Positions 1-58,007 of a stretch of 64,000 nt of DNA are shown here, in pieces. The stretch lies in assembly GCA_963749205.1 (NCBI GenBank), contig CAVVLW010000006.1, forward strand, positions 449,176 to 513,175, given 5' to 3'. Numbering within the stretch: the stretch's first letter is position 1; each line of letters begins with the position of its first letter. The notes beneath the pieces were generated by a model, which was not told the origin of the DNA, did not search any database, and worked only from the letters and a program-made list of their open reading frames with translations. The stretch comes from an uncultured Thermoplasmata archaeon. Its GTDB lineage: Archaea; Thermoplasmatota; Thermoplasmata; Lutacidiplasmatales; UBA184. A program made the translations under genes and the position numbers.

Positions 1-308
1 GGGTCCCTCACAAGGGCGTTCCGCTCCATCGTCATCGAATCGAGGATGAGGCTTGGTATGTGCTCGAGGGAATCCTGCGTTTCGAGTCTGGAACTCGAGA
101 ATTCGAAGCACCTGCGGGGACCGGGGTCTTCCTGCCACGAGGCACGCCACACACGTTCTGGAACCCCGGGCCAGTTCCTGCGCGTTACTTGCTAATCATG
201 GGTCCTAAGACCGCCGGCCTTCTGGAGGTGCTTCACGGACCCAGTCGTCCGCCACCCGCGGGTCTGAAAGCCCTCTACGATACTTTTGAGATCGATCTTC
301 TGGAGTAG
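1..308 (+). CDS. cupin-domain protein (5' end outside window)
   Basis: Frame of ORF 60..308 stays open back to base 3 and reads PLHRHRIEDEAWYVLEG, a cupin His/Glu metal motif, so GTG-60 is internal. Confidence 0.65.
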   Translation, partial: VPHKGVPLHRHRIEDEAWYVLEGILRFESGTREFEAPAGTGVFLPRGTPHTFWNPGPVPARYLLIMGPKTAGLLEVLHGPSRPPPAGLKALYDTFEIDLLE

Positions 309-327
309 GTGCAAGGCCGATTGCGAC
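308..327. repeat. REP-like palindrome
   Basis: GGTGCAAGGCCGATTGCGAC; begins at the last base of the cupin gene's stop codon. Confidence 0.6.
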
Positions 328-422
328 GTGTCTCCGACTTCTGCCGCAGATTCGCATGCAACCGGCTCCAGGTCAGGGACGACCACACCCCCAGGAATGA
401 GTAAACTGTCATCCCTTGAGAG

Positions 423-430
423 TTTATTTG
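423..430 (+). promoter_or_regulatory. TATA-like box upstream of DinB gene
   Basis: TTTATTTG centred about 29 nt upstream of ATG 455; the same spacing recurs at other genes here. Confidence 0.35.
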
Positions 431-454
431 TCGAAATGGGATAGACGTGGGTCC

Positions 455-1123
455 ATGGTCACCACGATCGACCTCATGGACTTTGTCCATGAACTTAGGG
501 AGGATTTTTTCGAATGTACGGCAAAGCTGGGCTGGAAGGAGTTCTCCAAGGACCGGGGGGTGAGCATGCACTCCTTTCGCAACATCTTTCTCCACCTGGC
601 GTACGTGGAAGAACAGCACGTTACCGAGTTCTGCGAGGGGAGACCCACCCCTTGGATGGCCGAGGTGATGAGAATCCCCCGGGACCGATACCTCACCATT
701 GCCTCGGTCCGGAAACGGCTCCGACAGGTTCGAGCGATGGGAGATCATCGGTTCAAGAAATGGAACACTCCCGAGGAACTGGACAAGCCCGCGGTCTGGG
801 TAGCCGCGGAGAAGTACCCCTTGCGATTATCCCGGGACTCCGCCCTCGCGCAGTGCCTGACGGAACACTTGCTACACCTTGGTGAAGTGGAAGCCATGCT
901 CTGGCAGATGGACGTGGAGCCGCCCACAACGTTCTGGATCGAACGTAGAGTGCTCCGGGGGAAGTGGCCGCCTCCCAGGTCCGCCCTCTTCCGAGGTCGC
1001 GTTCTTCCACGACGCCAAGCCGTGCGTCGCTCTGTCAAGAGAGGGAAAAAGGGAACGTTGAACGGCTCCAAAACATCCGTTGCGAGTCCTCGGCCGGCGA
1101 ATAACGACGCCGATGCCTCCTGA
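455..1123 (+). CDS. DinB-family protein
   Basis: ORF 416..1123 trimmed to ATG 455; His-rich helices FLHLAYVEEQH and LTEHLLHLGEVE; WIERRVLRGKWPPPRS aligns with the C-terminus of paralog 27404..27934 and is followed by an odd 45-aa basic tail. Confidence 0.65.
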   Translation: MVTTIDLMDFVHELREDFFECTAKLGWKEFSKDRGVSMHSFRNIFLHLAYVEEQHVTEFCEGRPTPWMAEVMRIPRDRYLTIASVRKRLRQVRAMGDHRFKKWNTPEELDKPAVWVAAEKYPLRLSRDSALAQCLTEHLLHLGEVEAMLWQMDVEPPTTFWIERRVLRGKWPPPRSALFRGRVLPRRQAVRRSVKRGKKGTLNGSKTSVASPRPANNDADAS

Positions 1124-1161
1124 TTCAACGGGAGCGGTGCAATATCCACCTCCCGTGATCT

Positions 1162-1182
1162 GGGTGCAAGTTCCGTTGCGCC
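1162..1182. repeat. REP-like palindrome
   Basis: GGGTGCAAGTTCCGTTGCGCC; a weaker copy GGTGCAATATCCACC lies at 1134..1150. Confidence 0.6.
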
Positions 1183-1198
1183 TACCTCGCGGGAGAAC

Positions 1199-55282: not shown

Positions 55283-55609
55283 AGAGCTCTTGGATCCTAG
55301 AGTGAGGGGCGACCGCACCAGGACCGAAGGGCCTCCTCCTCATGGTCGAGCGGTAGCTCAGCCCACCCCCCGCCCCAGAGTGCCGAGGGGATGTTCGACG
55401 CCCCCGGGGGGTTCAAACATCTAGAATGCAGGGCGTCGAGGTGCCCGGCCTCTCCCCGACGGGGATCCACCATCCCCCAACTCAGTCTTTACAAATCGGT
55501 TGGACCGGTCGATTCCAGACTCTCGTCACGAAAGACTCGCTTTTTCCGTCGACGGGTGAGGGCAGGAGCCGCCCGTAACTTCTCACCACTGAGAAACTAC
55601 ACCGCACGC

Positions 55610-56728
55610 CTACGTCCCTTCCGACTCTGAGTAACCGAGACCGTAGGAGCGAAGACGGTCGAGAAAGGGGCCGGGGGGGACGGCGGTCTCCGGAGCTTGA
55701 ACCCCCTGACCACGGACCATTCCGGCCCGGAACAGCTCGGCGGTGGCAGCGGCGGCGAGGGACGTGCCGTTCTGGCGTTCATCCCCGGTCACCCGAAGGA
55801 CCAGCCGTCGCACGCGATCGTTCGCAATTCCCTCAATCTCTACCTCAGTGATCCAAACCTCAGGGCCCGACGTGCCGGGGATTCGGGACAGCAGCGCGGC
55901 CGTGAACTCACGGGGGCGGACTGAGGTCCCGGCGACGGTGACCGGCTCCGAGCTCGCGAAACCAAGACGGACAAGATTCTCGAGCGCGTCCGCGGTCGCG
56001 CGGGAGAGTCCGACCTTGAAGTCGAGGGTCTGCAATCCCCGGCCCAGGAATGCGGGGAGGGTGGCGAGCTCCGAGTGCAAAGTCGTGACGTAGTCAATCA
56101 CGCCGAACGGTGGTGCGTGCGTCACCCGCTCACGCCCGGAGAGGGGCGGGGTCTCGCGGAGGACTCCCTGGTCGAGGACCACCGGCGCGAGGGTGAACTC
56201 GTCCAGCAAGGTCTGCGCGGAGTAGGGGAGTGAGAAGGTCGCGGCCTCGTCCAGCGACCGGCGACCAGAGCGCAGATGAACTGCCGTCAGCCGATCGAAT
56301 CCTTGGGACCCATGTGCGGCGAGAACGTTCGTGATGCCGGGAGCCTTGCCGGCCCCGAGCACGGCGAGAAGTCCCGCCTTCTCGAAACGCGAAGCGAGTT
56401 CGAGCTGGCGGAGGGTCATGCGGTACAGACCCCCCAGGTCGAGGTAGGAGCTGGTCGCTGCGAGGCACGCCTCCATCACCGCGAGATTCTGGTAGTATAG
56501 GGTCGCGTTCACCGTCAACTGGCTGTCTCCCAGGATGCGCCTGATTGCGTCCGGATCTGTGACGTCAGCGACGGCCGCCTCCGCGCCGAGTTCACGGGCG
56601 AGAGCGCCCACGACGTCGCCCCGGACGTCAACGAGGAGAAGGTCGGGCACCCCGTCCAGGGAGAGCTGCCGGGCGATCCCGCGCCCGACGATCCCGGCCG
56701 CACCGAGAATGACGATTCGGTACGTCAC
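55610..56728 (-). CDS. saccharopine dehydrogenase-like NAD(P)-binding oxidoreductase
   Basis: N-terminal IVILGAAGIVGRGIA Rossmann motif; 372 aa. Confidence 0.75.
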   Translation of the reverse strand: MTYRIVILGAAGIVGRGIARQLSLDGVPDLLLVDVRGDVVGALARELGAEAAVADVTDPDAIRRILGDSQLTVNATLYYQNLAVMEACLAATSSYLDLGGLYRMTLRQLELASRFEKAGLLAVLGAGKAPGITNVLAAHGSQGFDRLTAVHLRSGRRSLDEAATFSLPYSAQTLLDEFTLAPVVLDQGVLRETPPLSGRERVTHAPPFGVIDYVTTLHSELATLPAFLGRGLQTLDFKVGLSRATADALENLVRLGFASSEPVTVAGTSVRPREFTAALLSRIPGTSGPEVWITEVEIEGIANDRVRRLVLRVTGDERQNGTSLAAAATAELFRAGMVRGQGVQAPETAVPPGPFLDRLRSYGLGYSESEGT

Positions 56729-57135
56729 CGAGGCTCCGACTCGGGCCCACGATCGCCCGGTTGGTCGTACTCGATCAAGTGAAGGCGGCCACGGAGGGCA
56801 TTCCGAACGCGCCCTCCGTCTAGGGATCTTGAGCCCGGCACTCCGGGGAGAACGAGGACGCCCCGATAGTCAGGACTGTCATCGTCGAGAACGGGGAGGA
56901 TCTGGCTATCCAACAGGCGTACCTCGCGCTCCGAAGGAGCCATTCAACCCTCCAGTCGGCGACAGTGCATGCGTCATTAAGCAAGTGGCCCGCTCTCCCT
57001 AACCGAGTCCCTAGGATGCCGAGGGTGGTGCTCCCCATTCCGGAACACTTCACATCCCCTTCTGACGTCCCGGAGCCCATCGGTCTCCCTTCGGGGTCCC
57101 GAGCCGACGGAGCCCGTTTGGCGCCGGGGTCGACG

Positions 57136-57748
57136 CTACCTTCCGCCTTCTTGCGCGGGGGGAGTACCGCGTAGTGGGGGGCCCTTGAGGTCGGTCGTGA
57201 TCCGTTGCGCCAGCTGACAAAACCGGGTCCAGGGGTTGGGCCGTCCGGGGTACCGCTCCCTGAGGTGAGCGTCCAGGGGCTCGAAGGCATTCCAGTCAGT
57301 GACGATCGAGGTACTGAACGAAGTCCCTGACCAGCTCGTAGTCCAGTGTCCGGGAGGACACCATCTGTCCGATCAGCTCGTACTGATACGCGAAGGAGCG
57401 ACTCTCGATATCCTCGAGGCTGTCGTCGAACGACTTCCAACCGGAGGCGGACGCGGCCCCGACGGCACGGCGCATATTCCATCGCCTCGTGGCGAAGTCG
57501 GTCGAAGTAAGTTGCTCCATCATCGAGAAGGCTAGATTCCTCCTTGCATCCACCCGGGAGGCTCGTACGTTGTACGCTAGGAGGATGACCGAAACCACGA
57601 GTGCGGACGACGCCGCGATGCTCGCCCACGTCTGGATGTCCGAGAGAGTCACGCGGTCGCATGCCCGCCGCCGTATGAAGAAGTATCGTTGTCCCGTGCT
57701 CGAGAACCCGGCCGAATTTGCCCCCGCACCCGCGGAAAGGGATGGCAC
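57136..57748 (-). pseudogene. DUF4760-like membrane-anchored protein, one frameshift
   Basis: ORF 57296..57748 ends ...FVQYLDRH. The next frame continues DWNAFEPLDAHLRERYPGRPNPWTRFCQLAQRI to TAG 57136, which looks like the missing C-terminus. Confidence 0.4.
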
Positions 57749-57830
57749 CCTGGATAGGGAACTGGCTGTTTCAAGTCCCCGACAGATAAGCAGTCGACCG
57801 ATACCATTCCACAGCTAAACGTCCGTGAAA

Positions 57831-57872
57831 TGTATTGGAGGGGGACACTGCTGAATTCTTCATATCCCTAAC
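57831..57872 (+). repeat. 41-nt bulged hairpin repeat, copy 1 (most divergent)
   Basis: TGTATTGGAGGGGGACACTGCTGAATTCTTCATATCCCTAAC. Confidence 0.7.
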
Positions 57873-57980
57873 CGGACCATCAACGGGACAGCGGGACTGC
57901 GCAACTACATGAAAGCGAGATGACGCCACTCTCGCATCCAGCGGGCCTCCGGAGCGGGGGTGCACCTGGTGCGCCGCGGC

Positions 57981-58007
57981 GGCTGGGTGCATGAGGTGCA
58001 CCGAGCC
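57981..58007. repeat. REP-like palindrome (variant)
   Basis: GGCTGGGTGCATGAGGTGCACCGAGCC. Confidence 0.5.

Follow-up and report, generated by a model that had tools for sequence, protein, structure and literature searches.

Palindromic sites in the window

The sequence analyzed here, referred to below as the window, is a stretch of 64,000 nucleotides (nt) of contig CAVVLW010000006.1 from an uncultured Thermoplasmata archaeon (assembly GCA_963749205.1, positions 449,176 to 513,175), and the element under study is a family of short palindromes that lie between its genes. The region is rich in toxin-antitoxin, GNAT, DinB, SnoaL and glyoxalase genes, and it contains a tyrosine recombinase gene at 46716-47594 (+ strand). 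The consensus of the palindrome family is GGTGGGTGCAA-N6-TTGCACCCACC, a 28-bp unit composed of two 11-bp arms and a 6-bp spacer (11-6-11). Copies were identified using a 32-nt position matrix that was built from TGCAA-N6-TTGCA copies and applied with a threshold of 12 bits. A total of 26 intact copies were found in the window, compared with a mean of 0.18 (maximum 2) in 50 shuffled sequences, and the 64 kb contain in addition two variants and six copies that are split by insertion sequences (ISs).

Intact copies are situated at 304-331 (spacer GGCCGA, 26.0 bits), between convergent genes at 1159-1186 (27.1 bits; an orthologous copy is kept by the SnoaL gene homolog of locus L132) and between divergent genes at 1671-1698 (27.5 bits), followed by copies at 2478-2505 (20.5 bits), 3141-3168 (24.3 bits), 3261-3288 (18.0 bits), 5359-5386 (25.4 bits), 6058-6085 (26.7 bits) and 7092-7119 (25.3 bits), the last of which has its core end 46 nt upstream of the ATG of a hydrolase gene. 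Directly after the hydrolase stop codon lies a variant with a 5-bp spacer (7938-7964; TGCAA-N5-TTGCA with 0 mismatches), and a possible degenerate copy, read from the sequence as CGCAA-CGTCGA-TTGCG and scoring below the matrix threshold, is located at 8370-8397. Further copies are found at 8421-8448 (25.6 bits), 8983-9010 (25.0 bits), 9679-9706 and 11994-12021 (23.6 bits); the one at 9679-9706, GGTGGGTGCAA-TCTCGA-TTGCAACCACT, is the best-scoring copy (36.3 bits). The copy at 16245-16272 (26.7 bits) overlaps the stop codon of a ParE toxin gene and is kept in L012 and L131, where the spacers are unrelated. To the right of it, copies are present at 16955-16982 (31.4 bits), 19253-19280 (23.9 bits), 20118-20145 (19.7 bits), 22684-22711 (a weak copy, 15.9 bits) and 23574-23601 (33.9 bits), between convergent genes at 30556-30583 (32.4 bits), between divergent genes at 32787-32814 (30.4 bits), and at 35338-35365 (26.1 bits), 37174-37201 (20.4 bits), 37971-37998 (27.3 bits) and 38357-38384 (22.9 bits). 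The sole copy beyond 43.4 kb is a weak one at 50204-50231 (16.5 bits).

A preliminary description of the same DNA had proposed a family of palindromes like the bacterial repetitive extragenic palindromic (REP) sequences. The matrix counts confirm that the family is real, and it is indeed a high-copy, extragenic family of imperfect palindromes with a REP-like distribution, although the literal pattern given for it, GGTGCAA-N4-10-TTGCACC, has two matches only (23574-23601 and 30556-30583; 0 in shuffled sequences). Of the 26 copy starts that had been listed, 22 correspond to matrix matches, 7941 is a true copy (the variant with the 5-bp spacer) and 8375 is the degenerate copy; however, 27975 and 57981 are other palindromes that do not belong to the family, and the copies starting at 3141, 7092, 20118 and 37174 had been overlooked.

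Geometry and symmetry of the motif

The loop of 4-10 nt in the preliminary description did not hold. When up to one mismatch was allowed, TGCAA-N6-TTGCA was found 18 times in the window, and the remaining spacings were at background level. A scan of 335 kb of related DNA with two arm matrices at spacings of 0-15 gave 103 matches at 6 bp and 1-6 matches, which is the level of shuffled sequence, at each other length; what had been taken for a loop is therefore a spacer whose length is fixed. In an alignment of 95 copies, the orientation of which was optimized by expectation maximization (EM), the arms carry 0.3-2.1 bits per position and the spacer carries 0.35 bits or less, and the inner positions of the arms are the best conserved part of the palindrome. 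The motif is two-fold symmetric in this alignment, and the oriented EM search detected no asymmetric loop or flank signal and no conservation outside the 28 bp. The spacers comprise 87 distinct sequences among 97 copies; identical spacer pairs number 12 where 3.4 +/- 1.9 are expected, which is a mild excess only.

The half-site, considered as a unit in the manner of a DNA uptake sequence, was rejected, as solo GGTGCAA barely exceeds expectation once the IS-split and variant copies are removed. Rfam and tRNA scans of the window returned no matches, and the sole match from a search of a plasmid collection was an unrelated SDR gene. Matches to viral contigs (117; L154-L270, IMG/VR) were also discarded, being an unrelated phage hairpin, TTCGGGTGCAATAGCTGTTGCACCCTTT, that recurs in approximately 100 viral contigs with a GC content near 0.66. 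The hairpin probably represents a conserved terminator of phages, and the GGGTGCAA / TTGCACCC arms are shared by chance. Stem mismatches in the 26 intact window copies are G·T on the + strand in 37 cases and A·C in 14. Other loci lack this asymmetry, which is independent of the sense of the upstream gene and may reflect strand-biased transitions.

Position relative to genes

Statistics of position were compiled from 90 copies pooled from the window and related loci. All 26 matrix matches in the window and 88 of the 90 pooled copies lie outside called genes, although these cover approximately 72% of the DNA, and for 31 of the 90 the offset from a stop codon ranges from -11 to +39 nt. All 90 copies keep a distance of at least 40 nt from start codons. 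By gap type, the palindrome occupies 14 of the 34 convergent gaps, 41 of the 94 tandem gaps and 11 of the 35 divergent gaps, and its density is highest in the convergent ones (1.66/kb, compared with 0.81/kb in the divergent ones). Adjacent pairs, 27-73 nt apart, occur only occasionally. Within the window the copies are clustered (Fisher p = 4e-5): the earlier statement that they occupy most intergenic gaps is accurate for the first 43.4 kb, where 24 of 32 gaps contain one, but fails for 43.4-64 kb, where this is the case for 1 of 14.

Insertion sequences at the spacer

The six IS-split copies that had been reported were recovered, four of them interrupted by IS110-type and two by IS4-type elements. 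The four IS110-family copies in the window represent two element types (A and B), each with two identical copies. Element A splits a copy at 21337-22680 (+ strand; repeat unit 21342-22665, transposase 21428-22549), where the junctions read ..GTGCAA, then TGTGGACATG...CCCACATAAC, then TGacgGTACAACCACC; its second, identical copy is located at 39880-41226 (- strand; repeat unit 39898-41221) and is flanked on the - strand by ggggagGTGCAA and TGcgagTTGCACCCAC. Element B splits a copy at 33566-34909 (- strand; repeat unit 33585-34905), which reads GGTGCAA, then TGTGGACATG...CCCACATAAC, then caaccTTGCAACCACC on the - strand, and its second copy splits a degenerate palindrome at 41991-43332 (+ strand; repeat unit 41995-43315) between GGTGAAA and cgagccTTGCAGacg. 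When the window and other contigs are considered together (five sites for element A and four for element B), all IS110-type insertions lie between GGTGCAA and N5-6-TTGCAMCCAC. In both elements the inverted repeats are subterminal and a longer noncoding region lies downstream of the transposase gene, which is the arrangement of IS1111 (PMC11187229). Simple k-mer matching of the noncoding ends of the IS110 elements gave no convincing guide-like matches to the arms.

An IS4-type DDE element (PF01609), which is unrelated to IS110, occupies the spacer of three palindromes; at two of these sites it has duplicated 6 bp of target, which are exactly the spacer (ggctga, ctcttc). In the window, the palindrome at 25825-27321 is split by an element at 25842-27304 (GGTGGGTGTAAggctga, IS, ggctgaTTGCACCTCGG), with duplication of the spacer ggctga. 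The palindrome at 14086-15581 is split by an element at 14103-15564 with the flanks GGTGGGTGCGAgcagct / tggttgTTGCACCCAGT; the two 6-mers differ (gcagct / tggttg), which points to an earlier rearrangement between IS copies. Elements of both kinds (two IS110/IS1111-type, one IS4-type) enter at the spacer edges, and at least three insertion sequences use the palindrome as a specific integration target. An IS630-like element (9805-10829, consisting of an HTH_33 open reading frame (ORF) followed by a second ORF) is situated approximately 100 nt to the right of the best-scoring copy, and a DDE_3 transposase is also located near palindromes in L085.

Conservation of the arms

The preliminary description had viewed the palindrome as a hairpin and had named, in advance, the absence of arm covariation as a result that would refute it. 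Covariation is absent: in the 95-copy alignment, the covariation score is 0.150, compared with 0.154 +/- 0.010 in shuffles of the arms, and 74.4% of the stem cells are paired, compared with 74.5 +/- 0.7% after random reassignment of the 3' arms among copies. The inner five stem pairs show hardly any double changes. In copies situated just downstream of a gene, the mismatches on the sense strand comprise 18 G·U and 23 A·C, so that there is no G·U bias, and a run of four T follows 2 of 38 such copies. Folding of the 28-mers gave a median of -9.6 kcal/mol, compared with -4.8 kcal/mol for shuffled versions. What is maintained is the sequence of the arms and their spacing, not base-pairing.

Orthologous sites in other genomes retain the arms, with unrelated spacers and unrelated DNA on the far side. 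This was observed for the copy beside the ParE module (window, L012 and L131), for the copy next to the SnoaL gene (window and L132), in L037 and L068, and for the copy ahead of the hydrolase gene (window, L134 and L149). The last of these has its core end 46 nt upstream of the ATG in L134 and L149 as in the window, and it is half-decayed in L149. Neutral descent from a master sequence would decay arms and spacers together; retention of the arms alone therefore argues for sequence-specific recognition of the arms, and, given the fixed spacing, the simplest reading is that a dimeric protein acts on the DNA.

Host and distribution among relatives

Loci with at least three matrix matches per 8 kb, in a scan with one genome per species, all belong to metagenome-assembled genomes (MAGs) labeled 'Thermoplasmata archaeon'. 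These loci are of soil or peat origin, have a GC content near 0.6, and come from at least nine species-level genomes; the Lutacidiplasmatales MAGs AcS1-67 and SubAcS15-31 (PMC9287336) are among the palindrome-rich genomes. Archaeal signs within the window are an HTH_10 neighbor gene and one protein with a best match to archaeal XerA, and genes have leaderless starts preceded by a TATA-like box, which lies approximately 25-37 nt upstream of the ATG. Taken together with the Thermoplasmata origin of the motif-rich loci, these features identify the genome as archaeal, in agreement with the preliminary description. A bacterial (rhizobial) origin, to which the adenylate cyclase-TPR paralogs and the IS110 elements had seemed to point, was rejected on the basis of the genome scan, the HTH_10 gene and the XerA match. 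The promoters of the hydrolase gene (window 7056-7160; loci L128-L153) share a conserved TATA-like box, tAGaGATAgta, and have no leader.

Loci selected by hydrolase or tyrosine recombinase homology were picked independently of the motif and thus provide a less biased estimate of its density. Metagenome contigs with a hydrolase homolog contain 25 copies in 63.5 kb when their GC content is 0.65 or lower, compared with one weak match in 57 kb when it is 0.66 or higher, and loci with a recombinase homolog contain 0.29-0.43 copies/kb on both sides of the recombinase gene. Homologous sites differ in the presence or absence of the palindrome, and a decayed relic of it is found in a higher-GC relative (L136/L137). 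The motif is dense in a soil/peat clade of Thermoplasmata and absent from higher-GC relatives.

The window also contains four paralogs of an adenylate/guanylate cyclase-TPR gene (3366-5316, 17185-19137, 48142-50184 and 62008-63921), which is unusual for an archaeon. The gene at 3366-5316 is apparently frameshifted. Homologs of the paralogs are present in several related loci (L085, L123, L068).

Tyrosine recombinase gene and gene order

The tyrosine recombinase gene at 46716-47594 (compared with loci L274-L278) is highly conserved and belongs to a Thermoplasmata family that is mostly single-copy; its homologs number more than 475, and the top 120 of them show 57-84% identity. In four genomes it is surrounded by differing accessory or defense genes (PIN/VapB, HicAB, GNAT, glyoxalase, type I restriction-modification), and a Fic gene is situated 8-14 kb upstream of it in all four. 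The gene could encode the XerA of the lineage or be the anchor of a variable island. Integron attC sites with an intI gene were considered and rejected, as the recombinase scored 40 bits against a cut-off of 265 bits for integron integrases and the site is a symmetric one of 28 bp.

In other genomes, genes of the window are found again around the hydrolase gene in changed order, in many cases together with the palindrome at their 3' side. A small gene (6778-7056) and the hydrolase gene are neighbors both in the window (6778-7915) and in L130 (260-1538), in opposite order, and intact or decayed palindromes are located between and around both genes. In L123 a direct repeat of 60-65 bp (19254-19313 and 20647-20711) flanks an alpha/beta-hydrolase gene. 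Each copy of the repeat consists of approximately 37 nt of unique DNA and a palindrome with the spacer TCGTCC; the homology extends as far as the outer edge of the right arm, and there is a 1-base difference between the two right arms. Recently moved gene units were sought by exact-protein look-up, which gave the same genomic context only, and no 11-6-11 site with TAA-N6-TTA was found in the window or in the recombinase-selected loci.

Interpretation and alternatives

The palindromes are interpreted as a dispersed family of 28-bp two-fold symmetric sites that are recognized on DNA by a putative dimeric protein and that serve as landing pads for insertion sequences, a reading to which we give about even credence. 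A dimeric, sequence-specific protein would bind the palindrome on the DNA with one arm per subunit; the site is tolerated just after stop codons and excluded from the promoter, over approximately 40 nt in front of leaderless starts, and at least three insertion sequences exploit it by entering at the spacer edges. We infer that the arms are retained because a protein binds them rather than because they form an RNA hairpin, and among the roles that had been offered in the preliminary description, a protein landing pad or recombination target is a better fit than the RNA roles. Several points weigh against the proposal of a bound site. The spread of the copies is patchy, with 1 of 14 gaps occupied in 43.4-64 kb; the gene calls on which the placement figures depend are home-made; and most of the related loci were collected via the motif itself, so that their densities do not represent whole genomes. 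Copies lie in divergent gaps too (11 of 35), so that the placement does not indicate one particular role in gene expression, and recognition of the arms alone by a mobilizing enzyme could also give conserved arms and free spacers.

The classic REP role, that of a terminator or 3'-end stabilizer formed when the palindrome is transcribed at the 3' end of a gene, would account for the many copies 0-40 nt past stop codons, for the convergent gaps being the densest, and for the favorable folding energy of the 28-mers. It is nonetheless quite improbable: the terminator and mRNA-stabilizer roles are not supported, because compensatory changes are absent, with pairing equal to its arm-shuffled value, G·U does not exceed A·C on the sense strand, and no T/U tract follows the copies. 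The full two-fold symmetry of the motif and its presence in divergent promoter regions also disagree with an RNA element. A selfish origin of the REP type, or of the type of REP doublets forming hairpins (REPINs), would have a trans-acting RAYT-like (IS200/IS605 Y1) or other transposase copy the palindrome in the form of a single-stranded hairpin, and this we regard as unlikely. It would agree with the high copy number, the extragenic location, the presence/absence differences between homologous loci, the confinement to a single lineage, the decayed relics of which are seen in the higher-GC relative, the slight excess of identical spacers, and the targeting by insertion sequences, as is seen for bacterial REPs (PMC1525189). 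On the other hand, the arms are conserved while the spacers are essentially random, which means that the copies are not recent derivatives of a master sequence; a single consensus is found across at least nine species; the asymmetric 5' tetranucleotide and the regular doublet (REPIN) organization are missing; and no Y1 transposase was seen among the small ORFs of the window, including those flanked by palindromes. A tblastn search of 1.1 Mb, with RAYT and IS608 TnpA queries, gave no matches and is a weak test.

Site-specific recombination was considered in the form of a tyrosine recombinase (Xer-like) that would use the 11-6-11 palindromes as core sites, cut them at the spacer edges, and so delimit shuffled gene units; its probability is judged to be low. 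The geometry is identical to that of dif, with two 11-bp arms, a 6-bp spacer and cleavage at the spacer ends (PMC2958812, PMC8371274), and conservation peaks at the inner positions of the arms, AA-N6-TT being common to both. Other points in its favor are the constrained arm sequence, the entry of IS elements exactly at the spacer edges, the recurrence of units of a gene plus a 3' palindrome in changed order in other genomes, and the direct repeats of L123, which flank a gene, end at the palindrome and have the same spacer. The toxin-antitoxin, GNAT, DinB, SnoaL and glyoxalase genes of the region have functions typical of cassettes (PMC9668308), and a well-conserved tyrosine recombinase gene is at hand. 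Against these stand CAA-N6-TTG in place of the dif hallmark TAA-N6-TTA (PMC11840125) and dozens of copies in 64 kb in place of a single site in the terminus region. At the three loci found via the recombinase, the palindromes are located on both sides of its gene and no array boundary is visible; the genes between palindromes have both orientations and some units are empty; neighboring palindromes hardly ever share a spacer; and homology between loci does not end at palindromes significantly more often than expected (9 cases compared with 7.5). The more specific proposal, that an integrase of the 46716-47594 type acts on the palindromes as core sites ending single-gene or operon units that are excised, inverted and re-inserted, is likewise improbable. 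If it were true, there would be genome-wide cassette shuffling in soil Thermoplasmata, comparable to dif modules and integrons but on a symmetric 11-6-11 site, and a new route of gene shuffling in archaea; the differing spacers would then limit which sites recombine together.

The palindrome family is remarkably clean in design (28 bp, two-fold symmetry, one spacer length) and common to many species. The constraint on sequence rather than structure points to an abundant DNA-binding protein or recombinase in an uncultured clade of soil archaea. The sites also provide a natural archaeal case in which RNA-guided IS110/IS1111 elements and an IS4-type transposase converge on one 'safe-harbor' site with single-nucleotide precision.

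Comparison with known systems

To our knowledge, well-defined REP-like families have hardly been described in archaea, and REP-like repeats are a bacterial textbook topic. The present palindromes are a REP-like family of an archaeal clade that is symmetric, fixed in spacing and constrained in sequence, and it is undescribed as far as our literature search shows, which turned up no account of the motif and so agrees with the novelty suggested earlier. It has the descriptive features of REPs, namely a short imperfect palindrome (28 bp), many copies and an extragenic location, and lacks those of REPINs, namely GTAG-type asymmetry, inverted doublets and a cloud of variants around a master sequence that includes the loop. 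Like the REP sequences and bacterial interspersed mosaic elements (BIMEs) of E. coli, Pseudomonas and Sinorhizobium, its members are short GC-rich imperfect palindromes that are extragenic, mostly 3' of genes, and present in hundreds of copies. Bacterial REPs are targeted by the IS110, IS4 and other IS families (PMC1525189), and insertion by IS110- and IS4-family elements is a further common feature (PMC1525189; PMC11187229). The present family differs from REP/BIME sequences in its archaeal host, perfect two-fold symmetry, fixed 6-bp spacer of free sequence and single consensus common to many species, and in having no GTAG-type foot, no doublet/BIME organization, no sign of hairpin selection and, by the weak test described above, no RAYT.

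Integron attC sites, including those of archaeal integrons (PMC9668308), resemble the palindromes in being placed just 3' of small accessory genes such as those for toxin-antitoxin systems and acetyltransferases. The attC sites are targeted by IS1111-type elements, so that similar invaders are found in both systems (PMC11187229). However, attC sites are 55-140 bp long, are conserved in structure, contain extrahelical bases and serve cassettes of one orientation, whereas the present sites are 28 bp long, symmetric and conserved in sequence, and have genes running both ways, and Rfam returns no match in the window.

The pdif sites of Acinetobacter flank mobile gene modules, toxin-antitoxin genes included. 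Xer/dif core sites, pdif among them, share with the palindromes a length of 28 bp, inverted arms of 11 bp, a 6-bp center and best conservation of the inner positions (PMC2958812, PMC8371274). The dif site is single-copy with TAA-N6-TTA, whereas the present family has hundreds of copies with CAA-N6-TTG and its recombination is putative.

The dRS3 elements of Neisseria and the mosaic elements built with them (NIMEs), ATTCCC-N8-GGGAAT in approximately 700 copies, differ from the palindromes in their 6-bp arms and 8-bp spacer, their mosaic arrays with RS elements and their bacterial host, and have no sequence similarity to them. Both are nevertheless intergenic sites with short inverted arms around a variable spacer of fixed length, and dRS3 is likewise an integration target, in its case of an element with a transposase listed in the IS110/Piv group, and is suspected to be a site of gene insertion, deletion and rearrangement (PMC3898611; PMC1525189).

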